Virus record (IMG/VR): IMGVR_UViG_3300029554_000001
From: a virus
Reading direction: 5' to 3' (one strand)
DNA length: 64,000 nt
The notes under the pieces were generated by a model. It ran no database searches and had not been told where the DNA came from. It worked only from the letters and a program-made list of their open reading frames with translations. Shown one piece after another: positions 7,622 to 58,930 of this stretch. Both the position numbers and the translations under genes were made by a program. Positions within the stretch are counted from its first letter, which is position 1, and the number at the start of each line of letters is the position of its first letter.

Positions 7622-8587
7622 ATGGAACATACGAATTTTATGATGATGATTGGAGTTGTTGCAAGTGGTAAATCCACTCTTGCTCAAAATCTCAAAAATA
7701 TGCTGACTAAAATGGGTCAGCCTACAATGATTGTTTCATCGGATGAAATTCGTGAAACTGTTTTTGGAGATGTAAACGACCAGACTCATAATGACGAGGT
7801 TTTTAAGGAAGTTCGTCGCCGTATTAACAATTGCATTGATAAAATGAATGTTATTGTTGATGCAACTAATATTAATGTTAAATCTCGTAAGAGCTTGTTG
7901 GATATTGTTCGCAATAAGGAGAATGTTACTAAAGTAGCTTATGTTATGACTACTCCCGTTGCTGTTTGTAAAAGACAGAATAAAGCGAGAACTCGTACAG
8001 TTCCCGAAGAAGTTATTGACAGACAGATTGGCAAGTTTGAAATTCCTTTTTATGAAGAAGGTTTTGATACAATTAATTTAATTGGTTGGAATTTTAATCA
8101 GTTTGAAGTAATTGTCCCTCAGTCTAATTGGACTACTGATGATGATTATATTATGAGTTTGATGAAGGGCTTTGACCAGAAAACTTGTCATCATAAGTAC
8201 ACTTTAGATGAACATTGTAGAATTTGTGCCGAAGAAGTTGCTAAAAGAACTGATGATAAGATTCTTTATAGAGCTGCACAAATTCATGACTTAGGCAAGT
8301 TAACTACTGGACAGCCCAAGGAAGATGGTTCTGGAGATTATAGATATTATAGTCATCATAATGTAGGAACGTATGACCTTTTAGCAAATCTTGATTGTAT
8401 TGGATTTACTAACATGGACGATATCTTAAAATGTCTGTTTTATGTTAATTTTCATATGCTTCCATTCTTTCTTGAAACTGAAAAGTCTAAATCTAAATGG
8501 GAAAAGATTATGGGAAAAGAAAACCTTGATAAGCTTTTTTTGTTTAACGAATGCGATAAAATTGCAAGTGGGACTTCTGAAAAATAA
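7622..8587 (+). CDS. Polynucleotide kinase-like P-loop domain fused to an HD phosphohydrolase (RNA end-healing enzyme candidate)
   Basis: N-terminal GVVASGKST P-loop, SSDEIRE and DATN (Pnk/AAA_33-like). C-terminal HHKYTLDEHC...QIHDLGK...YYSHHNVG (HD motif). Sits directly upstream of the RNA ligase. Confidence 0.75.
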   Translation: MEHTNFMMMIGVVASGKSTLAQNLKNMLTKMGQPTMIVSSDEIRETVFGDVNDQTHNDEVFKEVRRRINNCIDKMNVIVDATNINVKSRKSLLDIVRNKENVTKVAYVMTTPVAVCKRQNKARTRTVPEEVIDRQIGKFEIPFYEEGFDTINLIGWNFNQFEVIVPQSNWTTDDDYIMSLMKGFDQKTCHHKYTLDEHCRICAEEVAKRTDDKILYRAAQIHDLGKLTTGQPKEDGSGDYRYYSHHNVGTYDLLANLDCIGFTNMDDILKCLFYVNFHMLPFFLETEKSKSKWEKIMGKENLDKLFLFNECDKIASGTSEK

Positions 8588-8622: not shown

Positions 8623-9981
8623 ATGAATTTTCATTTTAAGAAAGAGTTTCTTTGGCATCCTCTTTATGAATATGTTATGACTGTTAAAAGAAAGTATATT
8701 CAATCTTATACTCTCCTTAACAACGAACCTTGTCCTGAAAATTACAATTTTAATGATTGGCTCGACAGAATTTTTGAGGCGTGGGAGAATATTACTCCTA
8801 AACTTAATGAAAAGTTGAGTAAGATTTTTGACCCTCTTCAGATTACTTGTTATGACCATTATGTACTTTTTAAGTATAAAGGTTTTATTGAATTGTCTGA
8901 TGATTATGATTTAAATTCTTTTTTTGAATTATATGATGGTCTTTATAGGGAATGTCGTTCTTGTGTCTTTGATTTAAAGAATGACGAAATTGCTTTGGCT
9001 TCTTTGGCAAAGTTTAAGAATTATGGCGAGGATGATGGTGATTGGTCTCCTAAAAAAATTAGGTCTAAATATCATTTTGCTCATGCAGTTTTTATTACTA
9101 ATAAACTTGATGGTTCTTATCAGCAATATAGATATATTGCAGAGGAAGACAGAATTTTAGGTTCTGGTTCTCAGGCATTAGACCCTGTAGAATCTTGGAG
9201 ACTTGCGGCGGGTTATAAACTTTTATCTGAGGGACAAAAAGAATTAATTAGGGATTACCCTGATTACACTTTTATTTTTGAATATATTTCTCCAAAAAAT
9301 CCCATTGTTGTTAAGTATGATGAATCTCAAGAAGGATTGTATTTACTTGCGGCAAGGGATGTTAAGGATGGCAAGGAAGTTTCTTTTGATATTCTTAGTG
9401 ACATGGCTGAGGAATATGATTCTAAAATGACTCAATGGTATTATAATGCTACTTTGTTTAGTGTTTTAGCCGATACCGATAATTATCTTTCTTCTGAAAA
9501 AGAAGGTTGGGTAGTTGATATGGTTGATGGATATAAAAATCATTTTAGATGCAAAATTAAAACATCAGATTATGTCTTGATACATAAAGCATTATCTAAA
9601 AATATATCTCCTAACGCAGTTATTAATGCTATTCATGAAGATAGATTTGATGACTTTTTAGCAAAGTGTCCTGAAGCGTATAGAGAATTAATTATGCAGT
9701 ATTATAATACTGTTCATGAATATCTTAATCTTTATAAAGAGCTTATTGATAAAATTTTAATTAAAGGAAATGCAGAATGTGTAGATTTTTGGAATGATAA
9801 AAAAGAAGCAATGCTTTGGATGGATAAACTTCCCAAAGTGTTAAAGGGCAGAACAAAGACCAAATATCTTGGACAGGAAAATGATTTCTTGTTAAAGAGA
9901 CAGTTTTGCTATAAATATTCTGAAATTACAAAAGCCCTACACAATTTAAAGCGTTTTAAAAATTCTATGGTGGAAGGGTAA
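8623..9981 (+). CDS. RNA ligase, T4 Rnl1-like family
   Basis: Nucleotidyltransferase motifs: I NKLDGS, III FIFEYISPKNPIVVKY, IV EGWVVDM, V RCKIKTSDY. Confidence 0.8.
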   Translation: MNFHFKKEFLWHPLYEYVMTVKRKYIQSYTLLNNEPCPENYNFNDWLDRIFEAWENITPKLNEKLSKIFDPLQITCYDHYVLFKYKGFIELSDDYDLNSFFELYDGLYRECRSCVFDLKNDEIALASLAKFKNYGEDDGDWSPKKIRSKYHFAHAVFITNKLDGSYQQYRYIAEEDRILGSGSQALDPVESWRLAAGYKLLSEGQKELIRDYPDYTFIFEYISPKNPIVVKYDESQEGLYLLAARDVKDGKEVSFDILSDMAEEYDSKMTQWYYNATLFSVLADTDNYLSSEKEGWVVDMVDGYKNHFRCKIKTSDYVLIHKALSKNISPNAVINAIHEDRFDDFLAKCPEAYRELIMQYYNTVHEYLNLYKELIDKILIKGNAECVDFWNDKKEAMLWMDKLPKVLKGRTKTKYLGQENDFLLKRQFCYKYSEITKALHNLKRFKNSMVEG

Positions 9982-17430: not shown

Positions 17431-17431
17431 T

Positions 17432-29042: not shown

Positions 29043-29531
29043 ATGATTGGTGAAATGCAGACTGTTTCTAGCGTAACTTTTGGTATTCCTTCTGATTTTC
29101 CTTCTCTTGTAGACTCTGTTGTGGGTTCTCTTAAAAAGGGATATAGAGATTATTGTTTTACAAATAAGCAACTAAAAGAAATTATTGAAAAATGCCACGA
29201 GGCAAATGTAAGTTTTGCTTATCGTAAGCAGTTAGATGAAGATTACAAGATTGAATATATTGAACTTATTCCTTGTACTTTTTATTTCGCAGAAACAGTC
29301 GAGGAAAATAAAGTCGAAAACATTCAGGTAGCAATGGAAAATCTTCCTGTGGCATTAATTTTCTGTCCTAAAAATAATAAGACTGATATTACTATTGATG
29401 CTGATTATCAGGAAAAGAATGAAAAAAGGGCAAAGAGTTATAAGAAGCTTGCATATTTCGATGATGATGGTTGTCCAGTATATATTGAAGACCTTACGAG
29501 AATGAGAAAGGAAAAAGAAAATGGAGTATAA
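29043..29531 (+). CDS. Hypothetical protein
   Basis: 162-aa ORF; no family recognised. Confidence 0.6.
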   Translation: MIGEMQTVSSVTFGIPSDFPSLVDSVVGSLKKGYRDYCFTNKQLKEIIEKCHEANVSFAYRKQLDEDYKIEYIELIPCTFYFAETVEENKVENIQVAMENLPVALIFCPKNNKTDITIDADYQEKNEKRAKSYKKLAYFDDDGCPVYIEDLTRMRKEKENGV

Positions 29532-30354
29532 AACATTAGGCGATAGAATGAAAGGAGCTTACGAGAATAAATATCGCAATTATCTTCCTGAGAATCTTCC
29601 TGTTATTGTTAGGCTTGATGGGCAGCACTTTCATTCCTTCTGTCGTGGTATGAAGAAACCTTTTGACCCAATTTTTGTTAAAACTATGCAACAAACTATG
29701 CTTAAGCTCTGTGAAATTATTCCTAATGTTAAGTTTGGTTATGTTGAATCTGATGAAATTTCTCTTGTCATGATTCAAAGTGAAAGAAATTCTCAGCCTT
29801 GGTTTGATAATAATATTCAAAAGATTGTTAGTACATCTGCTGCGCTTTGCACTCTTTGGTTTAATAATTATTTTGCTGAGAATACTATTATTGATACAAC
29901 TTTGGATATCTTTAATATGGACCAAGATTCTTATGATTGGCGAATGGTTCGTAAGGGAAAAGAAATGCCTACTTTTGATAGTAGAGTATTTGTTGTCCCT
30001 GCCTTTGAAGTGCATAATTATTTTGTTTGGAGACAGCAGGATTGTACTCGAAATTCTATTCAGGCAGTTGCTCAATCTTTGTATCCTCAAAAAGAACTTC
30101 ATGGTATTAACACTACTAAATTGCAGGATAAGATGTTTACTGAAAAGGGTGTAAATTGGAACGATTATACGACAGTAGAGAAACGTGGTACTTGTGCTTA
30201 TCGTGTTCCTACTACTGTTATTGGCAAAGATGGTCAGGAGGCTATTCGTTATAAATGGGTTCTTGATTATGAAATGCCGATTTTAACAAGTGAAGAGGGT
30301 AAAAACTTTATTAGTCAAAAGGTATTTACCAATGAGTTTATTCAAAAATCCTGA
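29521..30354 (+). CDS. Thg1-like protein (tRNA-His guanylyltransferase family 3'-5' nucleotidyltransferase)
   Basis: IVRLDGQHFHSF, KPFD, GYVESDEISLV, FDSRVFVVP....YFVWRQQDCTRNS and EKRGT align with the Thg1/TLP signature blocks. Confidence 0.85.
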   Translation: MEYKTLGDRMKGAYENKYRNYLPENLPVIVRLDGQHFHSFCRGMKKPFDPIFVKTMQQTMLKLCEIIPNVKFGYVESDEISLVMIQSERNSQPWFDNNIQKIVSTSAALCTLWFNNYFAENTIIDTTLDIFNMDQDSYDWRMVRKGKEMPTFDSRVFVVPAFEVHNYFVWRQQDCTRNSIQAVAQSLYPQKELHGINTTKLQDKMFTEKGVNWNDYTTVEKRGTCAYRVPTTVIGKDGQEAIRYKWVLDYEMPILTSEEGKNFISQKVFTNEFIQKS

Positions 30355-34090: not shown

Positions 34091-34564
34091 ATGTCAGTGT
34101 CTATTATTCAGGGAGATGTCCTTAAGACTTCGGCAAAGTATATTTGTCATCAGGTTAATACCTTTGGTGTAATGGGCGCTGGTGTTGCTCTTCAAATTAA
34201 GAAGAATTATCCTCATGTTTATTTGGAGTATAATAAGTTTTGTAGTTATCATACTCCTGAAGAGCTCTATGGTAAAGTTCTTCGAATTGAGGAAAATAAA
34301 GATAGAGTTTTCTTGAACATGTTTTCTCAGATTGGTATTGGTGGACCAAATGTAAACACCAATTATGAATATTTTCATGAATGTCTTCTTAAGATTCGTG
34401 AAATGATTCCTATTGGAGAAGAGATTGCTATGCCTTATATGATTGGGTGTGGTCTTGCTGGTGGAGATTGGTCTATTATTAGCGCAGATATTTCTGATAC
34501 TTTAGGACTAAGCCATATTGTACGTTTGTATGATTTTAATGGCGTGACTTCTGTGAAAAAGTAA
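34091..34564 (+). CDS. Macro domain protein (ADP-ribose binding/hydrolase)
   Basis: ICHQVNTFGVMGAGVALQIKKNYP and MPYMIGCGLAGGDW match the macro-domain signature. Confidence 0.8.
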   Translation: MSVSIIQGDVLKTSAKYICHQVNTFGVMGAGVALQIKKNYPHVYLEYNKFCSYHTPEELYGKVLRIEENKDRVFLNMFSQIGIGGPNVNTNYEYFHECLLKIREMIPIGEEIAMPYMIGCGLAGGDWSIISADISDTLGLSHIVRLYDFNGVTSVKK

Positions 34565-37146: not shown

Positions 37147-37265
37147 CCCCATTAGTGTAATGGAGCATTCTCGTTAACTGACGTTGAGTAAACACTAAGG
37201 TAGCTCCTTAGTGATAACAGACACATCGGGAGAGGAAGTTGGTTCGAATCCAATTATGGGGTCCA
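37147..37265 (+). tRNA. tRNA-like gene with a 53-nt insertion in the anticodon loop (anticodon unresolved)
   Basis: Acceptor CCCCATT/TATGGGG (one mismatch), anticodon stem TCTCG (37169-73)/CGGGA (37227-31), T-arm GTTGG-TTCGAAT-CCAAT, TCCA. The insert contains an 8-bp hairpin CACTAAGG/CCTTAGTG. Confidence 0.55.
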
Positions 37266-40106: not shown

Positions 40107-40237
40107 GTAGACTCTAACAGCAACTTTACAATCACAAATGCTAAGGACCTGTTTGTTGGAGGTTCGAATCCTTCACTCCCGACCATCGGGAGTTAGCTCA
40201 ACGGATAGAGCAACAGATTTTGTAAAAATGAGTCTAG
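40107..40237 (+). ncRNA. ACAGCAA-stem module 4 carrying a circularly permuted tRNA with encoded ACCA
   Basis: G-TAGACTC-TA-ACAGCAA ... GAGTCTA-G with a second helix TTTACAA/TTGTAAA. Internal order: CCTGT, TTGTT, T-arm GGAGG-TTCGAAT-CCTTC, acceptor 3' ACTCCCG, A-CCA-T, acceptor 5' CGGGAGT (perfect 7 bp), TA, D-arm GCTC-AACGGATA-GAGC, A, ACAGA. Confidence 0.75.
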
Positions 40238-41048: not shown

Positions 41049-41125
41049 AAGTGGAGGGTGTAGGTTCGAGTCCTGCCCTGCTCGTGGGAAACCCTTGCAG
41101 GAAGCTGCTAGGTACAGCGCCACTT
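41049..41125 (+). ncRNA. Circularly permuted tRNA-like domain (no ACAGCAA stem)
   Basis: Closing stem AAGTGG/CCACTT. Order: var AGGGT, T-arm GTAGG-TTCGAGT-CCTGC, capped helix CCTGC...GCAGG, AA, D-arm-like GCTG-CTAGGTA-CAGC, G. Starts 1 nt after the CCA of tRNA-Asn. Confidence 0.5.
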
Positions 41126-42010: not shown

Positions 42011-42217
42011 ATGAAAATTTGGAATGGAAATGATTTTGAATATCTTGGTTATTTTGTAAAAAATAATAAGAAAGCCAAATATTTTGAGGTTTTTGATAAG
42101 AATGGCAATCTTCTTTTCAAACAAACTAATTGGGGTCATGCTTGTGTGACTTCAGTTAAACATAAGATTGAAGACTTTCATAAAAAATATGGACAGGAGA
42201 TTAAAAATGAACAATAA
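42011..42217 (+). CDS. Hypothetical small protein
   Basis: 68-aa ORF. Confidence 0.55.
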   Translation: MKIWNGNDFEYLGYFVKNNKKAKYFEVFDKNGNLLFKQTNWGHACVTSVKHKIEDFHKKYGQEIKNEQ

Positions 42218-42722
42218 TAATTCAATCGAAATCGAACGTAAGTTTTTAATCTCTGGTTTTCCTAAAGTCGATTTTGATGAAGTCGGAATTGTTAAAACTA
42301 TCTATATTAATATCAAATATAATTCTGATGGAAAAATTTTACAGGAAATTCGTATAAGACGTTGGTTTGAAAGTGGCAAAGGTTATCGTCCAGATGCTCT
42401 TACTTTTAAATCTGGTGGTACTTTAACTCGTACTGAAATTGAAACAAATCTTACAGATAATTCTTTGTTTGACTGTTTTAATGAACTTGGTTATAATCCT
42501 ATTGTAAAAGATTATAGAGGTCTTTACAATAATGGCTATTTAATTGAATTCAATCTTGTAGATGGCGGTACTGATACTGCTTTCTATTATGCCGAAGTTG
42601 AATTTGATTCTGAGGAAGAAGCTAACAGTTATGTTTGGCCTTTTCCTGAAGTATTTATTGAGGAAGTTACTAATAAGCCTGAATATAAGATGGCAAATTA
42701 TTGGAAACGTACTCGTGGATAA
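42207..42722 (+). CDS. CYTH-domain (triphosphate tunnel metalloenzyme) protein
   Basis: N-terminal IEIERKFLI (ExExK signature). RBS GGACAGGAG before ATG 42207. Confidence 0.7.
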   Translation: MNNNNSIEIERKFLISGFPKVDFDEVGIVKTIYINIKYNSDGKILQEIRIRRWFESGKGYRPDALTFKSGGTLTRTEIETNLTDNSLFDCFNELGYNPIVKDYRGLYNNGYLIEFNLVDGGTDTAFYYAEVEFDSEEEANSYVWPFPEVFIEEVTNKPEYKMANYWKRTRG

Positions 42723-43404: not shown

Positions 43405-43638
43405 ATGAGTAAACAGATTAAATTGACTCCTTTACAAAAATTAGAGTTTATCAAAATGTGGTTGGGAAAGGATTTCTTTTTTCCTAAGCAACGTGAAGAA
43501 AAACTTTTAGATTTGTTAAAGGATGAAAAAGAAATCAAATGCTCAAAAGACTATAATTCTTACTTAGCTACTTTAAAATTTCTTGAACAAGTTCTTACAG
43601 ATGCTCAAACATGGGATGAATTTGTTGAGGATGAATAA
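43405..43638 (+). CDS. Hypothetical protein
   Basis: ATG 43405 lies downstream of TTGACA..TATACT. Confidence 0.55.
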   Translation: MSKQIKLTPLQKLEFIKMWLGKDFFFPKQREEKLLDLLKDEKEIKCSKDYNSYLATLKFLEQVLTDAQTWDEFVEDE

Positions 43639-43658
43639 AAAGAAATTTTAAAAAGTAC

Positions 43659-43687
43659 TTGACAAGATGAAGAGTATATGTTATACT
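43659..43687 (+). promoter_or_regulatory. sigma70-like promoter driving the distal RNA cluster
   Basis: TTGACA, 17 nt spacer, TATACT. Confidence 0.65.
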
Positions 43688-43719
43688 TAAGATGTGGTTG
43701 AGAGATACAACCTAAAAAT

Positions 43720-43815
43720 GCGGGAGTTAAGGAGAGGCCACCTTACCACATTCCGAGTGTGGGTTAAATCCGTCAAGAACGGTGCTCGCGGGTTCGAATC
43801 CCGTCTCCCGCTCCA
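43720..43815 (+). tRNA. Class II (long variable arm) tRNA with apparent CCG anticodon
   Basis: GCGGGAG/CTCCCGC, D-arm AAGG..CCTT, CCACA-TTCCGAG-TGTGG, about 25-nt variable arm with CCGT/ACGG stem, GCGGG-TTCGAAT-CCCGT, TCCA. Confidence 0.6.
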
Positions 43816-43942
43816 TTCCTTAGTAGTTTAAAAGACGATAAACAAATTAAAATACCCTTCAGTCGGAAAGCCTCTAATGAGTATAGAATGGCACTCAAGT
43901 AGGGAGTTCTGGATGGGCGAATCGGAACCACCAGCTAAGGAA
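43816..43942 (+). ncRNA. Cloverleaf-like element closed by an 8-bp stem
   Basis: TTCCTTAG/CTAAGGAA closing stem, then TA and D-arm-like GTTT..AAAC. Shares the 13-mer AGTAGTTTAAAAG (43822-43834) with the insert of tRNA-Ile (44638-44650). Confidence 0.35.
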
Positions 43943-43950
43943 AAATATAT

Positions 43951-44110
43951 AGGGGTGTAGCCAAGCGGTAAGGCAAGGGACTTTCAAGAATTAATTCAAG
44001 TAGAATCCAGTGGATTAGTTTAAAGACTGTTTCGACGGTATATTGGTTCAAGTCCAATATTCTTGACCAGACTCCCTGACTCGAAGGTTCAAATCCTTCC
44101 ATCCCTGCCA
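43951..44110 (+). tRNA. tRNA-Gln (anticodon TTG) interrupted by a 85-nt tRNA-like insert
   Basis: AGGGGTG/CATCCCT, Gln-type D-arm GCC-AAGCGGTAA-GGC, anticodon stem AGGGA (43976-80)/TCCCT (44073-77), GAAGG-TTCAAAT-CCTTC, G73, CCA. Loop halves CTTT (43981-84) and GAC (44070-72) sum to CTTTGAC. Confidence 0.75.
43985..44069 (+). tRNA. Nested tRNA-like gene inside the tRNA-Gln anticodon loop
   Basis: Perfect acceptor CAAGAAT/ATTCTTG, TA, D-arm ATTC-AAGTA-GAAT, stem CAGT/ACTG with a 14-nt loop, T-arm ATTGG-TTCAAGT-CCAAT, then A-CCA. Confidence 0.6.
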
Positions 44111-44139
44111 TAAGTAACAATTCAAATTATCGTTTACGT

Positions 44140-44284
44140 GTAGACGCTTACAGCAAACAATAATAAAATCAAATTCTAGTAAAAAAGATATAAATTAATA
44201 TTTAAAAAAGATTTTGGGTATTGTTCCTTGCTAATTAGTTTATGATGCTTTCATGATTCTCCTTTGTTAGTATTATGCGTCTAG
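44140..44284 (+). ncRNA. ACAGCAA-stem module 6 (AT-rich ~120-nt payload)
   Basis: G-TAGACGC-TT-ACAGCAA ... GCGTCTA-G. Confidence 0.6.
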
Positions 44285-44291
44285 TTTATAA

Positions 44292-44358
44292 GTGCCGTAC
44301 CAAGGTTGGGGTCGCTCGACGGAGGGCTTAAGAAGGGGTTCGAATCCCCCACGGTGCA
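44292..44358 (+). ncRNA. 67-nt tRNA-like element (acceptor and T-arm only)
   Basis: GTGCCGT/ACGGTGC (2 G.U pairs), T-arm (A)GGGG-TTCGAAT-CCCC(C). No convincing anticodon arm. Confidence 0.35.
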
Positions 44359-44414
44359 AGATTGAATTGTTTGGAGTACTACAAACAAGATGGTAAGTTA
44401 TTGATGATTTAAAA

Positions 44415-44479
44415 GTAAACCCTTACAGCAATTTAACTACTTAATTTTTGCTTGAAAAAAGATTATGGATAGGGTTTAG
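44415..44479 (+). ncRNA. ACAGCAA-stem module 7 (65 nt)
   Basis: G-TAAACCCT-T-ACAGCAA ... AGGGTTTA-G (G>A in the 5' strand compensated by C>T in the 3' strand). U/A-stem hairpin containing the CTTGAAA string (44451-57). Confidence 0.65.
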
Positions 44480-44495
44480 ATTTGTAATGTTAAAA

Positions 44496-44585
44496 GTAGA
44501 CACTAACAGCAATTTTAAAAAGTATTCTATATATATATTAAAATGCCAAAATTTAATTGTACATATTAACTTTTAAAGTGTCTAG
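44496..44585 (+). ncRNA. ACAGCAA-stem module 8 (AT-rich payload)
   Basis: G-TAGACACT-A-ACAGCAA ... AGTGTCTA-G. Confidence 0.6.
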
Positions 44586-44595
44586 GATTTTATAT

Positions 44596-44731
44596 AGGAC
44601 GGTAGCTTAATCGGTTTAAGCCTCCGACTTATCTGAGAGTAGTTTAAAAGTAAAACTGTTAATGTAAGTGCAAGACTTGCCTTTCAGACCAAATCGGAAG
44701 ATTGTGAGTTCGAGTCTCACCCGTCCCACCA
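44596..44731 (+). tRNA. tRNA-Ile (anticodon TAT) interrupted by a 59-nt minihelix insert
   Basis: AGGACGG/CCGTCCC (A1.C72 mismatch), D-arm GCTT..AAGC, anticodon stem TCCGA (44623-27)/TCGGA (44694-98), GTGAG-TTCGAGT-CTCAC, ACCA. Loop halves CTTAT (44628-32) and AA (44692-93) sum to CTTATAA. Confidence 0.75.
44633..44691 (+). ncRNA. Nested acceptor-stem/D-arm minihelix ending in ACCA
   Basis: CTGAGAG/CTTTCAG (7 bp, one G.U), TA, GTTT-AAAAGTA-AAAC, short hairpin, then A-CCA. Confidence 0.55.
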
Positions 44732-44749
44732 TTTATAATTAAAAATAAA

Positions 44750-44819
44750 GTAGACTCTTACAGCGATTACTTAGAGACTTGTGATGTGGGATTACATATG
44801 TTTTGAAAAATGAGTCTAG
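44750..44819 (+). ncRNA. ACAGCAA-stem module 9 (loop variant ACAGCGA)
   Basis: G-TAGACTC-TT-ACAGCGA ... GAGTCTA-G with internal hairpin TGTGAT-GTGGG-ATTACA. Confidence 0.6.
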
Positions 44820-44828
44820 CTTTATTAA

Positions 44829-44905
44829 GCGCCTGTAGTCTAATTGGATAAAACCGCACTCTTCTAAAGTGTATCTTATGAGTTCGAATCTCGTCAGGCG
44901 TGCCA
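44829..44905 (+). tRNA. tRNA-Arg (anticodon TCT)
   Basis: GCGCCTG/CAGGCGT, GCACT-CTTCTAA-AGTGT, ATGAG-TTCGAAT-CTCGT, GCCA. Confidence 0.85.
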
Positions 44906-44934
44906 CTTAAGGTCATTTGACTTTATTTAACATT

Positions 44935-45005
44935 GCGGCGTAGTATAATGGTCAATGCGCACGGCTCTAACCCGTGAAATGCTCGTTCGATTCGAAGTCG
45001 CCGCT
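44935..45005 (+). tRNA. Candidate amber-suppressor tRNA (anticodon CTA)
   Basis: Perfect anticodon arm CACGG-CTCTAAC-CCGTG (44960-44976). Acceptor GCGGCG/CGCCGC, TA, D-arm GTA-TAATGGTCAA-TGC. T-loop TTCGATT with an imperfect stem GCTCG/CGAAG. No encoded CCA. Confidence 0.6.
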
Positions 45006-45112
45006 GAAATATCTAAGGAAAAGTATTTTTCCTTTTGACATATAAGCAGAATAAACAAAAAATTAAAATAAAAACTAAAGTAAAACAAAGAAATTAAAGG
45101 AGACAAAAAATT

Positions 45113-46210: not shown

Positions 46211-46576
46211 ATGCGTAAGCTTAATACGATTCAGAAGAGAAACAACCTTAATACTGTGTACGCAGTGGATGAAAAGGGTGTTGGAAATGCCAATCATGTT
46301 TACAATGTTGTTGTAACTGATGGTCAGGGTAATGAGACTCCCTATTCTATTGCTTTCCAGAATGGTCCTCGTAAGGAAATGGATTCAATTCATGGACTTC
46401 TTGATACAGACCTTCTTGAGATTGTTCGTGACCGTCTTCAGGGATTTCAGTCTGGCGAGTTTGCTTGTCGTGAAAATGCGATTGCACTTACTCATCTCGA
46501 AGAGTGTTTGCTCTGGATGAATCTTCGTGTTGAAAATCGTGCAGAACGTGGAGTGCTTGGCACTAATAATAAGTAA
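46211..46576 (+). CDS. Conserved phage protein of unknown function
   Basis: 121 aa with IAFQNGPRKE...LLEIVRDRLQGFQSG.F.CRENA...LEE.L.W...R...R..RGV.GT, a pattern I recall from other phage hypotheticals. Confidence 0.65.
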   Translation: MRKLNTIQKRNNLNTVYAVDEKGVGNANHVYNVVVTDGQGNETPYSIAFQNGPRKEMDSIHGLLDTDLLEIVRDRLQGFQSGEFACRENAIALTHLEECLLWMNLRVENRAERGVLGTNNK

Positions 46577-49399: not shown

Positions 49400-49948
49400 A
49401 TGAAACAAATTAGGAAAAATGTTTTTGAGACTAATTCTTCAAGTGTTCATTCATTGAGTATTAGTGGTAAAGATAATTATGATTATACTCAACTTAATGA
49501 TTATATTGAAGAAGATTATGGTCACAATGGTTACGGCAAGTATCTAAAATTAAATTTTGAATCTTTTGGATGGGGTTGGGACTCTGATTTAGATGAAAAT
49601 AGCGCAATAGCTAAACTTGAATATATCTTAACTGCGATAACTTGTTTCCAAGGTTATAATATTAATTGGAGCAGTAGAGAAGATAAAGAAGAAGCTATTA
49701 AAGAAGTTATGGAATCTGATGATTTCCAAAAGTTTGAAGATGATGTAAAGTATGCTCTTTCTAAACATGATATTCACATTATAGGAATTAAAATTAGTCC
49801 TGATGAAGATGGTTATGTAGACCATCAAAGTCTTGATTATTATGTTTCTGATGGGATGTATTATATTTTTGCAAGAGATGGAATTACATTAGAAGATTAT
49901 ATTTTTAATAAATGTTATAGTTTGATTATCGACAATGACAATCACTAA
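49400..49948 (+). CDS. FETNSSSxH-family protein, paralogue 1
   Basis: N-terminus MKQIRKNVFETNSSSVHSLSI, later DGYVDHQS. One of four paralogues. Confidence 0.7.
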   Translation: MKQIRKNVFETNSSSVHSLSISGKDNYDYTQLNDYIEEDYGHNGYGKYLKLNFESFGWGWDSDLDENSAIAKLEYILTAITCFQGYNINWSSREDKEEAIKEVMESDDFQKFEDDVKYALSKHDIHIIGIKISPDEDGYVDHQSLDYYVSDGMYYIFARDGITLEDYIFNKCYSLIIDNDNH

Positions 49949-51099: not shown

Positions 51100-51732
51100 A
51101 TGAAACAGATTAGACGTAATGTTTTTGAAACTAACAGTAGCTCAAGTCATTCTCTTGTAATTACGACTGACAATGAGCACTATACCAGAGAAGAAATTAA
51201 TAAAAATTTTTATATGACTGATGGTATCGTAAGATTGTGGGAGTCTTCTCTTGAATTTTATCGCTCTCCTTTTGACATGCTTGTGACTTTTAAGGATAAG
51301 CTGAGATATGCTATTGCATCTTCTAATGGCAATCTTGTAGACCAGTGTAGAGAACTTTGTTATAAGTATGTGGATGGATTTGTAGACTTTGAATTTGACA
51401 CCAAAGATTATGTTTGGGATTCAGAAGTTAAAGATTATGTAGAAACAGATGACCCCATTCCTAACTATGGTGGTACTGATGACTATCAAATTGAGGGATG
51501 GCTTAAGTATTATAATGTATCTCTTGAGGAATTTTTAACTAATAAGAAATATATTGTAGTTGTGGATGGAGACGAGTATTGCGTATGGTCTAATATTAAA
51601 GATTCTGGTTTGGTTGATGTAAAAAAAATTATTCACGATAGCTATGAAGAATCCGAAGCAGAATGGCGTGAGCAATATTTAGCTCGACTGGAAAAGGAGA
51701 AAAAAGATGCAGACTCCAAACATGAGGACTAA
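51100..51732 (+). CDS. FETNSSSxH-family protein, paralogue 2
   Basis: N-terminus MKQIRRNVFETNSSSSHSLVI. Confidence 0.7.
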   Translation: MKQIRRNVFETNSSSSHSLVITTDNEHYTREEINKNFYMTDGIVRLWESSLEFYRSPFDMLVTFKDKLRYAIASSNGNLVDQCRELCYKYVDGFVDFEFDTKDYVWDSEVKDYVETDDPIPNYGGTDDYQIEGWLKYYNVSLEEFLTNKKYIVVVDGDEYCVWSNIKDSGLVDVKKIIHDSYEESEAEWREQYLARLEKEKKDADSKHED

Positions 51733-52138: not shown

Positions 52139-52576
52139 ATGAAGCAAATTCGTAAGAATGTATTTGAAACGAATTCTTCTTCTACTCATACCCTTGCCAT
52201 TTGTACCGAGGATGAGTATAAAAAATGGCAAGAAGGTAAAATGCTTTTTAACAAATGGAATGAAACTTTTATTAAAAACTCCATTAATATTACTAAGCAA
52301 GATAAAGTAGAAGCCGAAGAAAGATATAACACATATAAAGGGAAATATTATAAAGACTGGTCTGAACTTACAGAAGCAGAAAGAGACGAGTATACTTATA
52401 ATTATATTGCCCAGCAACGCAGACAGGAAAAGAGCTTTTCTTTTGAAGAGGATGGTTTGACCTATCAAGAATTTATGCAAGATTGTAGTAATGGGGGACT
52501 TGAAACCGAAACTTCTCGCTATATTTCCCCGAGTGGAGACAAGCTTGTTATTACTTGTGCTTATGGTTATAACTAA
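52139..52576 (+). CDS. FETNSSSxH-family protein, paralogue 3
   Basis: N-terminus MKQIRKNVFETNSSSTHTLAI. Confidence 0.7.
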   Translation: MKQIRKNVFETNSSSTHTLAICTEDEYKKWQEGKMLFNKWNETFIKNSINITKQDKVEAEERYNTYKGKYYKDWSELTEAERDEYTYNYIAQQRRQEKSFSFEEDGLTYQEFMQDCSNGGLETETSRYISPSGDKLVITCAYGYN

Positions 52577-52680: not shown

Positions 52681-53079
52681 ATGCTCGAAGGAATTAATAT
52701 TATTAGTACAGAAGTAACTAAAGATGTAGACGTTTCTCTTTTTATTTTTATTTGTGGAATTGCTTGCGTTTTGATGTTTTGTTCAATCCAACTTCTAAAA
52801 GCTGGTTTTGGAATTACAAAATCTACTTCGCACAAACTCTTTAAAATTGTTTTTAACAGTTTAAATATTGTTATTTTAGGAATTTGCTTATTCTTTTCTT
52901 CTGTTATTGTAAGCAAAGCTCTTAATGATTGTTTTTTCAATCCAGTTTATACCACAAAATATACTGTAACAATTTCCGATGAAGTTAGCTACAATGAATT
53001 TACTAAAAAATATAAAGTTCTTGAATACAATGAAAAAGATAACACTTATGTAATTAGGGAGAAAGAAAATGTCAATTGA
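52681..53079 (+). CDS. Two-TM membrane protein, tandem paralogue 1
   Basis: MLEGINIISTE.., two TM helices, and C-terminal FNPVY..KY.V...D..S..F..KY......DN.Y.I.E. Confidence 0.65.
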   Translation: MLEGINIISTEVTKDVDVSLFIFICGIACVLMFCSIQLLKAGFGITKSTSHKLFKIVFNSLNIVILGICLFFSSVIVSKALNDCFFNPVYTTKYTVTISDEVSYNEFTKKYKVLEYNEKDNTYVIREKENVN

Positions 53080-53455
53080 AAATAATCCAGCAATTGAAGT
53101 ACTTAATACAGTTACAACTACAAGTAACGGAAACATGTTTATTCTTATTATGTCTGTTGTTATTGTTGTTATTGGAATTGCTGGTATATGCGTATTTATT
53201 GTAGATTGGGTTAAAAGAAGAGGGTCAATGGATGGATTTTGTGCTATTATTGTCGCAACAATTATTTTCTGCGTAATTGCAGGATTCAATGTTTATGCAA
53301 TGAAGCATCCAGTTGAAACTATTTCTTATGAAGTTAGATTTACTGACCCTGACCATTTTTCTTTAACTGATTATGAAAAACTTGAAGAAGACTATATTGT
53401 TTCCAGAAAAGGGAAAATTTACACATTAAAAGAAAGGGTTGACAAAGATGATTGA
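53069..53455 (+). CDS. Two-TM membrane protein, tandem paralogue 2
   Basis: Overlaps its neighbours; same TM and C-terminal layout. Confidence 0.65.
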   Translation: MSIENNPAIEVLNTVTTTSNGNMFILIMSVVIVVIGIAGICVFIVDWVKRRGSMDGFCAIIVATIIFCVIAGFNVYAMKHPVETISYEVRFTDPDHFSLTDYEKLEEDYIVSRKGKIYTLKERVDKDD

Positions 53456-53807
53456 TGGTGTTAATCTAATTACTACTGAAACTATTTGTATTTCTGGTGG
53501 TTTTTTAAGTAATTTAATTCCTGCTATTATTGCAGCACTAGGTTGTATTGTTGCAATTATTGTATCAATTTCTTGGGTTAAGAAAGAAGAAGCATGGGTC
53601 GCATTTTTCTTTTGTTTATCTATGGGTCTTTGTTTAGGTATTGTTTCTTTTATTTGTTTCAATGATGCCTTTAATCCAAGATATGAAGAGCGATATCTTG
53701 TTCAGTTAGACGATAAAATTTCTTCTGAGTTTATTGACAAATATGATATTGTAGAACGAAAAGATAATAATGTCTATATAATTAAAGAGAGGAATACAGA
53801 TGATTGA
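53448..53807 (+). CDS. Two-TM membrane protein, tandem paralogue 3
   Basis: MIDGVNLITTE.., ...FNPRYEERYLVQLDD....F..KY......NNVYIIKER. Confidence 0.65.
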   Translation: MIDGVNLITTETICISGGFLSNLIPAIIAALGCIVAIIVSISWVKKEEAWVAFFFCLSMGLCLGIVSFICFNDAFNPRYEERYLVQLDDKISSEFIDKYDIVERKDNNVYIIKERNTDD

Positions 53808-54153
53808 TGGTGTTGAAGTTTTAACTTCCGAAATGGTCAGAACATCTCCTGAATTTGATGAGCTAATTTTTGTTGGGATTCTTTTTATAGGTTTCGCCTT
53901 AGTTATATTTTATTGCTTTGGCTACTGTGTTAAAAACAAATTTGGTTGGTTAGCTCTTGTTAGTGCTATAGGTGTTATTTTACTTAGTTTGGTTGCTGGT
54001 AAGATGTTTAAAGATGCTTTCTTTCCAATCTATGAAGAAAGATATATGGTACAATTAAAAGAAGAAGTTTCTTTAGATTTTATAAAGAATTATGAGATTC
54101 TTGAAGATAAAGGAAATGATATCTATATTGTTCGAGAGAAAGGAAACGAATAA
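53800..54153 (+). CDS. Two-TM membrane protein, tandem paralogue 4
   Basis: MIDGVEVLTSE.., ...FFPIYEERYMVQLKE....F..NY......NDIYIVREK. Confidence 0.65.
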   Translation: MIDGVEVLTSEMVRTSPEFDELIFVGILFIGFALVIFYCFGYCVKNKFGWLALVSAIGVILLSLVAGKMFKDAFFPIYEERYMVQLKEEVSLDFIKNYEILEDKGNDIYIVREKGNE

Positions 54154-54679: not shown

Positions 54680-55635
54680 TGAGCAATATTAAGACTTACC
54701 AGAATGGCAACTATGTCGTGACCATCGACTTGGATAGCGGAACCAAGACTCGTGAAAATGATTTGAGCTTTTTCAAGGCTGATTTTCCAGAGTGCTGTGA
54801 TTATAAAATTACTAATAATTGCGCACAGGGTTGTAGTTTTTGCCATGAGAACAGCACTCCTAATGGTAAGCATGGCGATATTCTCGGTGAACAGGGTATC
54901 AAGGTTCTTGAAAGTTTCCATGAATACACCGAGCTTGCAATCGGAGGTGGAGACCCCCTTTCTCACCCTGATTTGATTCCGTTCCTTCGCAAGTGCAAAG
55001 AGTTGAATCTTATTCCCAATATTACGGTTCATCAGTTTGAATTTATGAAGAATCAGGAACTCATTGAACAGCTTGTTAATGAAAAGCTCATCTATGGTAT
55101 TGGTGTCTCTCTTGTTGACCCTCTTCAGCCGCAGTTTCTCAAAACTATTTCTAAGTATCCCAATCTTGTTCTCCATGTCATTAATGGTATTGTGACGATG
55201 GATACTCTTCGTACTCTTAAGAATCGTGGGCTTAAGATTCTTATTCTTGGCTACAAGACAGTTCGTCGTGGTGAAGAGTATGTTAAGGAAGATTGGGCTA
55301 AGGAACTTGTAGCAAATAAGCAGAAGGCAATCTATGACAATCTTGGTCGCATGATTGATGAAAAGTGGTTCTCTGTTATTAGTTTTGACAATCTTGCTAT
55401 TAAACAGCTTGAGCCTAAGCGTCTTATGTCTGAGGAAGATTGGAATACTATGTATATGGGTGAAGACTATGATAATATGTCTAGTGCTTCTATGTACATT
55501 GATGCAGTAGAAATGCAATTTGCTTGTAACTCTTGTGATGTAAATCATCGTTATGATGTTGGCAATAAGACTGTTACTGAAATGTATCAGTTCTTGAGGG
55601 ATTTAAAGGAGAATAGCAATGAAACAGATTCGTAA
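54679..55635 (+). CDS. Radical SAM enzyme
   Basis: CAQGCSFC (CX3CX2C) near the N-terminus, plus GGGDPL. Confidence 0.75.
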   Translation: MSNIKTYQNGNYVVTIDLDSGTKTRENDLSFFKADFPECCDYKITNNCAQGCSFCHENSTPNGKHGDILGEQGIKVLESFHEYTELAIGGGDPLSHPDLIPFLRKCKELNLIPNITVHQFEFMKNQELIEQLVNEKLIYGIGVSLVDPLQPQFLKTISKYPNLVLHVINGIVTMDTLRTLKNRGLKILILGYKTVRRGEEYVKEDWAKELVANKQKAIYDNLGRMIDEKWFSVISFDNLAIKQLEPKRLMSEEDWNTMYMGEDYDNMSSASMYIDAVEMQFACNSCDVNHRYDVGNKTVTEMYQFLRDLKENSNETDS

Positions 55636-56203
55636 GAATGTATTCGAAACTAATTCTAGCTCTTGTCATTCACTTGTTATTTCAAAAGATAATTATGGTC
55701 CAGAACATATTCCAGCTTATTTAAATTTTAATGCGGATGAAGATTATGGTTGGGACAGATGTTGTTACTCTTCCACAGAAGATAAAGCTTCTTATCTTTA
55801 CACTGCTATGCTTAATTGTGATATGTTTGCTCAAGCAAAAGATTTTAAGCGTAAACTTGAAGAAGATTTTAAGATTAAAATTTTCGTCCCCACCTATAAA
55901 AGAGAGACAAGTAAATATGGTGGTTGGGAATTTTGGGATTGTAGCGGTTCTGTAGACCATGCAGGAGAACTTGTTCCCTTTATTAATGAAATTCTTGAAG
56001 ACGATGATAAATTGAAGCGTTTCCTTTTCGACCCAAAAAGTTGTATTTATACTGGCAATGATAATGGTTGCAACCCTGATGACAATTGTTATGTTGCTGA
56101 TGTAGATGAAAATGGTGAACATTACGATTGGGACATTGAAAAAAATGTTAAACATCCTCTTTGGGATGGAGAACATTATGAATATTACTTTAAGGGGAAT
56201 TAA
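55619..56203 (+). CDS. FETNSSSxH-family protein, paralogue 4
   Basis: N-terminus MKQIRKNVFETNSSSCHSLVI, later GSVDHAGE. Overlaps the 3' end of the radical SAM gene. Confidence 0.7.
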   Translation: MKQIRKNVFETNSSSCHSLVISKDNYGPEHIPAYLNFNADEDYGWDRCCYSSTEDKASYLYTAMLNCDMFAQAKDFKRKLEEDFKIKIFVPTYKRETSKYGGWEFWDCSGSVDHAGELVPFINEILEDDDKLKRFLFDPKSCIYTGNDNGCNPDDNCYVADVDENGEHYDWDIEKNVKHPLWDGEHYEYYFKGN

Positions 56204-57114: not shown

Positions 57115-57177
57115 GTTAGACTCTCACAGCAAACTACAAAAAACTTTTATTTTGGAAAAAGGACAAAAAGAGTCTAG
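57115..57177 (+). ncRNA. ACAGCAA-stem module 10, in the 5' leader of the Ro60-like gene
   Basis: GT-TAGACTCT-C-ACAGCAA (57117-57132) ... AGAGTCTA-G (57169-57177). Followed by the hairpin TCCTTT-AGA-AAAGGA (57178-57192), which includes the AAGGAG RBS. Confidence 0.65.
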
Positions 57178-57199
57178 TCCTTTAGAAAAGGAGAAAATT

Positions 57200-58930
57200 A
57201 TGTATAACTACAACAATCCTAACAAGAAGAATAACACTAAGGCTTGGGCTCCTAAGCCTGAAAAGCCTGTTACTAAGTCCAACCGAGTTAGCCGTAAGGC
57301 TTCTTTCATGGACAAGGTTGAGAATACTGCCAAGGGCTACTACACTCAGGTTGCAATTCCTTCTCTTCCTGCTGATAAGCAGTACACTTCTAATGGTGCT
57401 ATTGCCTACAAGTCCTCTGGTTCTGCTCTTCTTGATATCAATACTTCCATTACCGCTCTTCGTAGTCTTCCTGATGGTAATATTGTGAAGAAGTTCCGTG
57501 CAGCTTATTCTGAGAATCCTCGTCTCGCTATTCGTTGGCTGTTCTATGCTGGCGATATCCGTGAGGGTCAGGGTGAGCGCCGTCTCTTCCAGATTTGCCT
57601 TAAGGATATGATGAACAATGGTGGTGCTCAGATTGTGGCGAACCTGATTCCTATGATTCCTGAGTATTCTCGTTGGGATTATATCTATGTTGTCATGGAT
57701 AATCCTACTACTAAGCCTGTTGTTCGTGAACTGATTCGTAAGCAGTGGAAGGAAGATATGGCTAATATGAAGAAGGGCAAGTCCATTAGCCTTATGGCGA
57801 AGTGGCTTGATAGTGCTTCTTCTCACAGCCATGATACTCGTAAGCGTGGTCTTAAGACTATGGATATGCTCGGTCTGACTGAACGTGAGTATCGTAAGGG
57901 GCTGTCTGCTCTCCGTAAGCACCTTGATGTTGTTGAGCGTAAGATGTCTTCTCAGAATTGGCAGAGCATTAATTACGAGACTGTTCCTTCTAAGGCAAAC
58001 CTTAATTACAACAAGGCTTTCCTTCGTAATGATGAGGAGCGCCGTCGTGCCTATTTGAACGCTCTTACTAAGGGCGAGGCAAAGATTAATTCTTCCGTAT
58101 CTAATCCTTGTGACATTGTTCACAAGTATTGCGAGAATGATTGGGGTACTTCTCCTCATTCTTATGATGCCGCCCTTGAAGGCATGTGGAAGGCTCTTCC
58201 CAATCTTGTAACCGATGATAGTTCCACTATTGTTGTTGCCGATGGTTCTGGTTCTATGTGTGCTACCGTGGGTCGTACTCGTATGACTGCTCTTGAGGTT
58301 GCTAACTCTCTTGCAATTTACTTTGCAGAGCGTGCTAAGGGTGCATACAAGGGTCGTTACATTACTTTCTCTGCACGTCCTCAGATGGTTAATGTTAATC
58401 ATGACTCTTTGCGTGCAAATCTTAGAGAAGCTGCTCGTCATAGTGAGGTTGCTAATACCAACCTTGAAGCAGTATTTGACCTGATTCTTGATACTGCAAT
58501 TAAGAATCATTCTCCTCAGAGTGATTTGCCTAAGAATATTCTGATTATCAGTGATGGTGGTTGGGATTCTATGGTAAATATCCGTAATGTTAGCACTGGC
58601 AGTAATGGTTACGGTGGTTATGGTTATTGGGGTTATAACAGCACTCGTGCTACTGCTAAGGAAGCTCCTGCTTTCCTTAAGTCCATTGAGCAGAAGTACA
58701 AGAACGCTTCCTATGAGTGTCCAAAAATTTGTTTTTGGAATGTGTGCGGAAATGGTAACACTAATAATGGTCTTCCTATGACCAAGAATGACTATGGTAT
58801 CATGGTCAGCGGGTTTAGTGTTCAAACTTTGAAAATGATTCTCAGTGGCAAGACTAATCCTTGGGATGCACTTATGGAAGTGGTCTTGGATAAGCGTTAT
58901 GACAAGATTGAGGAGCTTGCTTTTAAGTAA
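57200..58930 (+). CDS. Ro60-like protein: helical N-domain (DUF2828/TROVE-like) plus vWA domain with MIDAS
   Basis: GAIAYKSSGSALLD, ENPRLAIRWLFYAGDIREGQGERRLF, MIDAS VVADGSGSM. C-terminal ICFWNV...NNGLP...YGIMVSGFSVQTLKMI parallels Ro60 LIVCGM..NGF.IADP.DRGMLDMCGFDTGALDVI. Confidence 0.65.
   Translation: MYNYNNPNKKNNTKAWAPKPEKPVTKSNRVSRKASFMDKVENTAKGYYTQVAIPSLPADKQYTSNGAIAYKSSGSALLDINTSITALRSLPDGNIVKKFRAAYSENPRLAIRWLFYAGDIREGQGERRLFQICLKDMMNNGGAQIVANLIPMIPEYSRWDYIYVVMDNPTTKPVVRELIRKQWKEDMANMKKGKSISLMAKWLDSASSHSHDTRKRGLKTMDMLGLTEREYRKGLSALRKHLDVVERKMSSQNWQSINYETVPSKANLNYNKAFLRNDEERRRAYLNALTKGEAKINSSVSNPCDIVHKYCENDWGTSPHSYDAALEGMWKALPNLVTDDSSTIVVADGSGSMCATVGRTRMTALEVANSLAIYFAERAKGAYKGRYITFSARPQMVNVNHDSLRANLREAARHSEVANTNLEAVFDLILDTAIKNHSPQSDLPKNILIISDGGWDSMVNIRNVSTGSNGYGGYGYWGYNSTRATAKEAPAFLKSIEQKYKNASYECPKICFWNVCGNGNTNNGLPMTKNDYGIMVSGFSVQTLKMILSGKTNPWDALMEVVLDKRYDKIEELAFK

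Follow-up and report, generated by a model that had tools for sequence, protein, structure and literature searches.

The current study concerns a 59-nt tRNA-like element that interrupts the anticodon loop of a tRNA-Ile(UAU) gene in a 64,000-nt stretch of viral DNA (IMG/VR record IMGVR_UViG_3300029554_000001), which is referred to in its entirety as the window. This 64-kb window is AT-rich (33% GC), phage-like and holds nearly all of its genes on the + strand. Its tRNA cluster also contains a tRNA-Gln(UUG) gene that is interrupted by an element of the same kind, and the features of both loci are as follows:

~31.9-45.0 kb: tRNA cluster (ARAGORN)
44596..44731, +: interrupted tRNA-Ile(UAU) gene; precursor of 136 nt, spliced form of 77 nt with encoded CCA
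44596..44632, +: 5' exon (acceptor 5' strand, D-arm, anticodon stem 5' strand and loop nucleotides 32-36, CUUAU)
44633..44691, +: insert (tRNA-like intron), 59 nt, between U36 and A37
44633..44639, +: inner acceptor stem 5' strand CTGAGAG, pairing with 44681-44687
44640-44641, +: inner U8-A9, preceding the inner D-arm
44642..44656, +: inner D-arm GTTT AAAAGTA AAAC, invariant among the Ile and Gly copies of the intron
44664..44680, +: inner T-arm GTAAG TGCAAGA CTTGC, as aligned by Rfam; stacks on the acceptor 3' strand
44681..44691, +: inner acceptor 3' strand CTTTCAG, discriminator A and CCA; proposed 3' cut after A44691
44692..44731, +: 3' exon (A37 A38, anticodon stem 3' strand, variable loop, T-arm, acceptor 3' strand and ACCA)
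43951..44110, +: interrupted tRNA-Gln(UUG) gene, Rfam score of 49 bits
43985-44069, +: tRNA-like intron of the Gln gene, 85 nt, between positions 35 and 36

The 5' exon of the Ile gene reads AGGACGG TA GCTT AATCGGTTT AAGC C TCCGA CTTAT and its final nucleotide, U44632, lies directly 5' of the proposed RNase P site; the insert reads CTGAGAG TA GTTT AAAAGTA AAAC TGTTAAT GTAAG TGCAAGA CTTGC CTTTCAG A CCA, and the 3' exon AA TCGGA AGATT GTGAG TTCGAGT CTCAC CCGTCCC ACCA. The unspliced junctions are ...CTTAT/CTGAGAG... and ...GACCA/AATCGG..., and splicing would yield the junction GCCTCCGACTTAT/AATCGGAAGATTG as DNA, or ...CCGACUUAU/AAUCGGA... as RNA. An earlier sequence-only reading had proposed that a tRNA-Ile(UAU) gene is split here by a 59-nt element ending in ACCA, and this was borne out by the letters themselves and by the Rfam tRNA model (RF00005), which matches 44596-44728 at 49 bits (gathering score 29). 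ARAGORN at default settings missed the gene at 44596-44731, with the -i option it detected the gene under the erroneous label 'tRNA-SeC(tca) i(36,59)', and it recognised the Ile sequence once the insert had been removed. As that reading had described, the anticodon stem TCCGA/TCGGA flanks CTTAT, the insert and AA, and excision through the CCA leaves the 7-nt loop CUUAUAA with U33, anticodon UAU and a purine (A37) at position 37. The precursor of 136 nt has a minimum free energy fold of -41.2 kcal/mol in which the outer cloverleaf and a separate inner three-way structure are both formed (z = -4.1), and none of 200 shuffled sequences was equally stable.

When isolated, the 59-nt insert scores 30.6 bits against the Rfam tRNA model (gathering score 29), covering model positions 1-71, and folds alone at -13.1 kcal/mol. 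The 7-bp inner acceptor stem (one pair of which is G.U), U8-A9 and the 4-bp D-arm were confirmed as first read from the sequence; the remaining hairpin, which had been taken to stand in place of both the anticodon and T arms, is aligned by Rfam as a T-arm with a 5-bp stem and the 7-nt loop TGCAAGA. It is the anticodon arm that is missing, 18 model positions being replaced by 3 nt, and the insert is, as far as its sequence tells, tRNA-like rather than a tRNA, since it cannot decode without this arm. It nevertheless holds determinants of the RNase P/RNase Z type, namely a stack of 7 + 5 bp, the T-loop UGCAAGA and ACCA.

The Gln locus would give the junction GGGACTTT/GACTCCCT if spliced, and its exons are 100% identical to an uninterrupted Gln gene at L016:11688 in a related contig, so that the boundaries are exact and the suggestion that both loci follow the same logic was upheld. 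Among shuffled loops, a fraction of only 1.2e-4 has a 7-bp stem and a CCA placed such that 7 nt are left, and the Gln locus at 43951-44110 passes the same shuffle test as the Ile locus; together with the covariation across the family (below), this agrees with the earlier argument that 7 residual nucleotides at two loci are not due to chance.

The insert family: boundaries, selection and movement

Close relatives of this phage were found on 14 contigs in IMG/VR (108-221 kb), many related contigs originating from human-gut assemblies, and the IMG/VR contig L015 is approximately 96% identical to the window across the locus compared. A blastn search of 43600-45100 against GenBank phages returned no match. 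Comparison of the RecD-like helicase identified phages of Firmicutes as the nearest cultured relatives, at no more than 36% identity, and the host of this phage is probably a Firmicute.

Genomes whose neighbouring genes match at 95-100% identity differ in whether the intron is present. The Ile allele of the window is not that of L015, its 96% relative, and the intron occupies another position in each; the exons of the interrupted Gly genes in L017 and L022, in turn, match the uninterrupted Gly gene of the window at 100% identity. The insert boundaries cannot slide, because the flanking bases differ from the terminal bases of the insert, and the inserted unit is a mature-tRNA-sized piece, running from +1 to CCA, without target-site duplication.

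Eight Ile(UAU) genes sharing the intron at position 36/37 were aligned (296 cells), 99.7% of the cells being paired, with compensatory double changes in 12 pairs; none of 500 shuffles was as good. Eight of these double changes fall in the outer tRNA and the other four affect four of the seven pairs of the inner acceptor stem. The outer exons are widely diverged between phages, yet all helices are kept by compensatory changes, which sustains the view of the outer gene as an interrupted tRNA-Ile(UAU) that retains its cloverleaf. The sole unpaired cell is the A1.C72 mismatch of the window, which the sequence-only reading had pointed out and which proved unique to the window among the eight aligned sequences. 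A second set comprised 19 representative inserts, compared without their variable middle; of the cells in the 12-bp acceptor/T stack, 99.6% are paired, and 11 of its 12 pairs show compensatory changes, where acceptor pairing belonged to the selection filter while, for most of the 19, T-stem pairing did not. G.U pairs are frequent in this stack, which points to the RNA, and not to inverted repeats in the DNA, as the target of selection. Judged by these patterns of covariation, selection acts on both the inner and the outer structures. Tertiary covariation between the D-loop and T-loop (G55 versus 'GU' in the D-loop) gave no clear signal, and comparison by eye of the inner acceptor with the host tRNA sequence gave inconsistent short matches only.

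Mismatches of the A1.C72 type were also noted in a tRNA-Tyr of L024 and in the tRNA-Phe of L034 and L035, and U1.U72 in CUA suppressor tRNAs. A Thg1-like 3'-5' nucleotidyl transferase is encoded at 29521-30354 of the window, and its presence together with the 1:72 mismatches could point to 5'-end repair or editing.

The core of the window intron recurs in tRNA-Gly(UCC) of other gut contigs with two differences in 41 nt. Five of the seven acceptor pairs differ between the Ile and Gly copies, so that the acceptor stem changes much faster than the core. The exact core of the Ile intron was found in IMG/VR in the same clade only. On this sequence evidence, the elements move between tRNAs.

The wider family was sought by applying ARAGORN -i to relatives, followed by a blind register test, in which each of the eight possible excisions that leave 7 loop nucleotides was checked for a 7-bp terminal stem, and this cleanly separated true inserts from false calls. 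Further clades were obtained from pattern scans of IMG/VR, GTDB genomes and metagenomes, in which loose matches were mostly chance or ordinary tRNA-Leu(UAA) genes and were filtered by structure. The census over all DNA fetched amounts to 55 distinct interrupted tRNA genes on gut phage contigs, with 49 distinct inserts of 49-123 nt, in tRNAs with eight anticodons (UAU, UUG, UUU, UUC, UCC, UAA, UGG and GUU) and at four sites (32/33, 34/35, 35/36 and 36/37), distributed as follows:

Ile-UAU: insert at 36/37 or 32/33
Gln-UUG: insert at 35/36
Lys-UUU: insert at 35/36 or 34/35
Glu-UUC: insert at 36/37
Gly-UCC: insert at 36/37
Leu-UAA: insert at 34/35
Pro-UGG: insert at 34/35
Asn-GUU: insert at 36/37
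Thr-UGU: insert at 34/35 (hand-parsed, outside the census filter)

Removal of the unit from inner +1 through position 76 leaves a 7-nt loop and a tRNA recognised by ARAGORN in all 55 genes, as would be expected if the insert is the excisable unit it had been supposed to be. The unit ends in CCA in 48 of the 55 members and in CCT, CAA, CCG or TCA in the other seven, and the exon nucleotide preceding the insert (-1) is U or C in every case. Representative inserts have in common an acceptor stem of 7 bp and a T-stem of 5 bp, mostly with UA at positions 8-9, and their T-loops follow the pattern U(U/G)C(A/G)A(A/G)(A/U); several related inserts score 35-43 bits as tRNA in Rfam. The range of forms is considerable: the smallest inserts (49-50 nt) consist of an acceptor/T-arm minihelix without a D-arm, deletion variants of 85 nt and 64 nt occur for the Gln intron, and in L260/L349 a 75-nt unit in tRNA-Ile(UAU) is a full-size inner tRNA that ARAGORN calls tRNA-Lys(UUU). 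Free-standing short units of this architecture were absent from an unbiased scan, the units being found only nested in anticodon loops. The window insert is a member of a mobile intron family confined to the anticodon loops of phage tRNA genes, and there is very little doubt that it is a real, conserved and mobile tRNA-like insert.

Proposed splicing route and alternative explanations

The anatomy described above suggests a route by which the insert may be removed. The intron would fold independently as a mini-tRNA with a 12-bp acceptor/T-arm stack, a D-arm and a 3'-ACCA. Host RNase P would cut between U44632 and C44633, thereby leaving a 3'-OH on the 5' exon, and an RNase Z/BN-type 3'-end endonuclease, cutting directly past the encoded CCA, would cut after A44691 to leave a 5'-phosphate on the 3' exon. 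The exons would remain paired as a nicked tRNA, which a phage Rnl1-family ligase would seal to give the loop CUUAUAA. Because the boundaries follow the tRNA-like ends of the intron at any loop position, the recognition signal must be the intron fold.

RNase P and RNase Z require an acceptor/T-arm stack, a T-loop and NCCA, the anticodon arm being dispensable, and the parts kept by the inserts match these needs, with the anticodon arm lost throughout most of the family and the D-arm lost too in the 49-50-nt forms. Bacterial RNase P has a preference at -1, which the U or C found in all 55 genes fits, and both enzymes leave 3'-OH and 5'-phosphate ends of the kind that suits an ATP-dependent Rnl1-type ligase. 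The 3' end of the intron follows the tRNA style of the phage, being CCA here, where 18 of 19 tRNA genes encode CCA, and a discriminator end in the Lak megaphages (discussed below), whose tRNA genes lack CCA. Cleavage by RNase Z just past an encoded CCA, with a need for a matured 5' end and with acceptance of arm-less tRNAs, is documented (PMC7479834). Two window genes are candidates for the later steps:

8623..9981, +: Rnl1-family RNA ligase, candidate exon sealer (Pfam RNA_lig_T4_1, PF09511, E = 1.3e-12)
7622..8587, +: polynucleotide kinase + HD phosphoesterase, candidate end healer (Pfam AAA_33, weak HD match)

Homologues of the ligase with 93-100% identity are present on 13 close-relative contigs; the ligase gave no sequence match against solved structures. 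The kinase-HD gene lies directly upstream of that of the ligase, and among PDB entries its product comes closest to the kinase domain of Clostridium thermocellum Pnkp (E = 2.7e-12). The window accordingly holds a T4-type heal-and-seal gene set of Rnl1-family ligase and predicted kinase/phosphoesterase, of which the kinase-HD is needed only if cleavage yields 5'-OH and cyclic-phosphate ends. In Pfam scans of 30 window open reading frames (ORFs), no candidate resembling RNase P, RNase Z or a splicing endonuclease was found, nor was a reverse transcriptase.

Several observations weigh against the proposed route. B. subtilis RNase Z is strongly inhibited by CCA (PMC7479834) and, given the probable Firmicute host, the 3' cut may need another enzyme. 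The seven units that do not end in CCA imply either that CCA is not strictly required or that these copies are decaying. Inserts at 32/33 have one single-stranded nucleotide before the inner stem, where access for RNase P may be tight, and the Lak introns possess an extra 5' module of 27-31 nt that is not removable by RNase P alone. The evidence for co-occurrence with Rnl1 comes from the near clade, where it could be assessed, and the 7 residual nucleotides are to be expected from any clean insertion of an exact unit, so that by themselves they show arrival and not removal. Taken together, it appears from the sequences to be quite likely that the insert is spliced out to give a working tRNA, and we lean towards RNase P, a post-CCA endonuclease and Rnl1 as the route, in which we infer the identity of both nucleases, the ligation step and the use of the spliced tRNA.

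Among the alternatives, a dedicated phage or host nuclease might read the tRNA-like fold and leave cyclic-phosphate and 5'-OH ends, which the kinase-HD would heal and Rnl1 would seal, as in T4 repair. The adjacency of the kinase-HD and ligase genes would be consistent with this, as would the inhibition of Firmicute RNase Z by CCA (PMC7479834), the seven non-CCA ends, which suggest a ruler rather than the reading of CCA, and the need of the Lak introns for a 5' cut beyond RNase P. We consider it unlikely, as no candidate was present among the 30 window ORFs scanned, the parts kept by the inserts fit what RNase P requires of a substrate, and phages commonly have heal-and-seal genes with which they counter anticodon nucleases (PMC7824862). 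It is also rather improbable that no splicing occurs at all, the tRNA gene being dead (a recent pseudogene) or the released mini-tRNA, for example as a toxin decoy, being the sole functional product. Diverged outer Ile exons keep every helix (a single unpaired cell in 296), all 15 near-clade genomes hold Ile(UAU) in interrupted form only, every one of the 55 spliced sequences is an intact tRNA and, in full-length loci, the interrupted gene is the only detected copy of its anticodon; these findings are difficult to reconcile with a dead gene, even though phage tRNAs are accessory genes, the identity of exons with intron-free alleles could reflect recent insertion, CCA has been lost in some copies, and selection on the inner structure is what would be expected if the mini-tRNA were the product.

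The full-size inner tRNA of L260/L349 and the remark that a Lak intron 'may encode a tRNA' (Devoto et al. 2019; PMC6784885) lend some credence to nested functional tRNA genes, two in one, with the inner RNA a working tRNA. The window insert and most others, however, are without an anticodon arm and cannot decode, which renders this highly improbable, and such a reading may describe the origin of the family rather than the present window element. A known intron class (group I or bulge-helix-bulge), chance or an assembly artefact is hardly credible. Group I introns of an Azoarcus-like type do occur in a suppressor tRNA of the relatives, but the present element occurs in dozens of independent assemblies with sequence variation, and chance has a probability of approximately 1e-4 per locus. 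Its 59 nt could not accommodate a group I core, and in sensitive Rfam scans of the tRNA cluster (E up to 10) neither Intron_gpI nor any other ribozyme family reached the listing. A bulge-helix-bulge intron was rejected since both junctions lie in one internal loop (5 + 6 nt), bounded by the outer anticodon stem and the inner acceptor stem, and not in two 3-nt bulges separated by a 4-bp helix; across the family this internal loop takes the form k x (11-k), ranging from 1 x 10 to 5 x 6, and the insertion positions vary, never being 37/38. A DNA transposon with inverted repeats was likewise discarded in view of the G.U pairs in the stems and the lack of a target-site duplication.

Returning to splicing by tRNA end-trimming enzymes, it is an even call whether the inserts constitute a distinct intron class, that of a mini-tRNA intron for which RNase P and an RNase Z-type enzyme act as the splicing endonucleases, with Rnl1 joining and possible spread at the RNA level. 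From +1 to CCA, the insert has exactly the size of a mature tRNA, and the family could for this reason spread as RNA: an excised or free tRNA could be ligated into a nuclease-cut anticodon loop and the product copied back into DNA. Under such RNA-level spread, the starting material of the family would be a full tRNA, as in the tRNA-Lys-like unit within Ile(UAU) of L260.

Other features of the tRNA cluster and window

Relatives of this phage contain tRNA(CUA) suppressor-type genes with anticodon-loop inserts of ~200-220 nt (L016:12564-12857, L027:13212-13504, L018:11967-12271 and L028:13303-13607), in which an Azoarcus-like group I core (…GAGCCAAGC…GAAGGTGTAGAGAGTAGACGGC…GGCTATGGTGACATAG) can be discerned by eye and is unreported at the Rfam gathering threshold; the tRNA(CUA) of the window at 44935-45005 is uninterrupted. 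In three relatives, tRNA-Arg(UCU) and the CUA suppressor abut without a spacer, CCA being followed by +1 (L019:13266-13417, L020:11754-11905 and L022:12450-12601), and one RNase P cut would make both ends.

A conserved 119-nt tRNA-like RNA at 37147-37265 has a 6-bp acceptor stem, a canonical T-arm, a TCCA end and a long central arm with an 8-bp hairpin; it is kept in the close relatives examined, is assigned inconsistent anticodons by ARAGORN and stands outside the CCA-ended intron family. The tRNA-Arg(CCG) at 43720-43815 is 96 nt in length, with an apparent extra arm of ~20 nt in the variable region (by eye), a length shared with L015 and L027, the gene being mostly 74-76 nt in relatives. For the 135 nt past this gene (43816-43950), TCCTTAG/CTAAGGA can form a closing stem of 7 bp, and a D-arm-like TAGTTTAAAAG stands at the start; CCA is lacking and Rfam gave no match.

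The motif GTAGAC.C..ACAGC(AA) occurs in 11 copies, all on the + strand (36798, 38993, 39371, 39605, 40107, 40293, 44140, 44415, 44496, 44750 and 57116), where 0.05 would be expected. Ten of these are intergenic within the tRNA cluster, in many cases 17-30 nt past a tRNA. The motif is similar to the CCUUACAGCAA box in class I RNAs of Dictyostelium and might serve as a promoter of the phage or as a signal for RNA processing. Sub-threshold YrlA (Y RNA-like) matches were obtained at 40131-40229 and 41052-41122 (42 bits, E = 1e-6, gathering score 69), and the DUF2828/DUF7788/vWA protein encoded at 57152-58930 might be a Ro60-like partner.

Among the protein-coding genes, 42168-42722 encodes a conserved 184-aa protein with an EXEXK-like start (IEIERKFL) and no Pfam match, for which a CYTH-like assignment is a guess; homologues are found inside the tRNA clusters of several phage clades (L029-L036, L084, L356 and others). 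Four paralogous ORFs start with MKQIR(K/R)NVFETNSSS (49400-49948, 51100-51732, 52139-52576 and 55619-56203), of which the two scanned, 49400-49948 and 51100-51732, gave no Pfam match, and they are interleaved with small membrane-like paralogues at 52681-54153. A possible ADP-ribose/anti-defence gene set (17420-17866, 25260-25988, 27025-28284, 34091-34564 and 46211-46576) includes NADAR (Pfam, above cut-off), a sub-threshold Acb2/Tad1-like hairpin domain, macro-like ORFs at 25260-25988 (weak Pfam match) and 34091-34564 (by eye), and a WGR+PARP-like ORF at 27025-28284 judged by eye alone.

Relation to known systems and significance

Precedents exist for individual aspects of the proposed route. 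In mitochondrial tRNA punctuation, plant mitochondrial t-elements and MALAT1 mascRNA, a tRNA fold in a longer transcript is cut by RNase P at the 5' side and by RNase Z at the 3' side, mascRNA gaining its CCA post-transcriptionally. As with the window insert, a tRNA-shaped fold defines the ends of the flanking RNA, but in these systems the flanks are never re-ligated, the elements are not introns and no tRNA is interrupted. Archaeal and eukaryal bulge-helix-bulge introns are cut by EndA/Sen at a motif formed by exon and intron together, with cyclic phosphate and 5'-OH ends, and those of archaea occupy several positions and show signs of spread between tRNAs, with transposition in Thermoproteales. 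They resemble the present case in being tRNA introns spliced by proteins, endonuclease then ligase, while no such motif exists in the window insert. Group I introns of bacterial tRNAs (Azoarcus tRNA-Ile and cyanobacterial tRNA-Leu) share the anticodon-loop niche and a sporadic distribution, although they are self-splicing ribozymes of ~200 nt or more, and no such core is present in the 59-nt insert. As for T4 Pnkp and Rnl1, a nicked anticodon loop is a natural substrate of the Rnl1 family, and the window has an Rnl1-family ligase beside a kinase-phosphoesterase; the break in T4 is damage by a host anticodon nuclease, whereas in the window phage it would be programmed maturation.

The closest likeness is to the 'enigmatic introns' reported in tRNAs of Lak megaphages by Devoto et al. 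(2019, Nat Microbiol; PMC6784885), whose presence varies between related genomes while their sequences are highly conserved, and for which no mechanism was proposed. A later Lak paper noted the existence of tRNA introns and nothing more. In a search of the full-text literature, only Devoto 2019 and a methods note in PMC8346664 were found to touch on the topic, with no mechanism and no CCA-ended minimal form. We parsed four distinct intron-containing tRNA genes (Thr, Phe, Tyr and Gly) from Table S6 of Devoto 2019, and in all four the intron contains a tRNA-like unit in which an acceptor stem of 7 bp is combined with a T-arm. The window insert shares with them the placement of a tRNA-like unit in the anticodon loop of a phage tRNA and a variable presence. 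The Lak introns differ in being 79-141 nt in length and all at 36/37, in carrying a 5' hairpin and a AAATTAAA linker (27-31 nt) before the tRNA-like unit, a module absent from the window intron, and in ending without CCA, at the discriminator or one nucleotide past it, whereas the window intron extends from inner +1 through ACCA. In the window family, the whole intron is the +1-to-CCA unit, the anticodon arm is usually gone, and four positions and eight anticodons, plus the hand-parsed Thr-UGU, are represented. The window element is the minimal, exact '+1 to CCA' form of a kind of intron seen before and never explained, in another phage group and at several loop positions.

Since standard annotation misses or mislabels interrupted tRNA genes of this kind, the tRNA repertoires of gut jumbo phages, and inferences on codon usage drawn from them, are incomplete. 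With its 59 nt, the minimal form allows the proposed mechanism to be read from the sequence and tested with a single transcript and three enzymes. The routes by which introns are removed include self-splicing, the spliceosome and the bulge-helix-bulge endonuclease; excision of a tRNA-shaped intron by RNase P and RNase Z, followed by sealing with an RNA ligase, would, if true, represent a further one. It would likewise give the RNA ligases common in large phages a role beyond damage repair, and would explain the Lak introns that were considered enigmatic in 2019.

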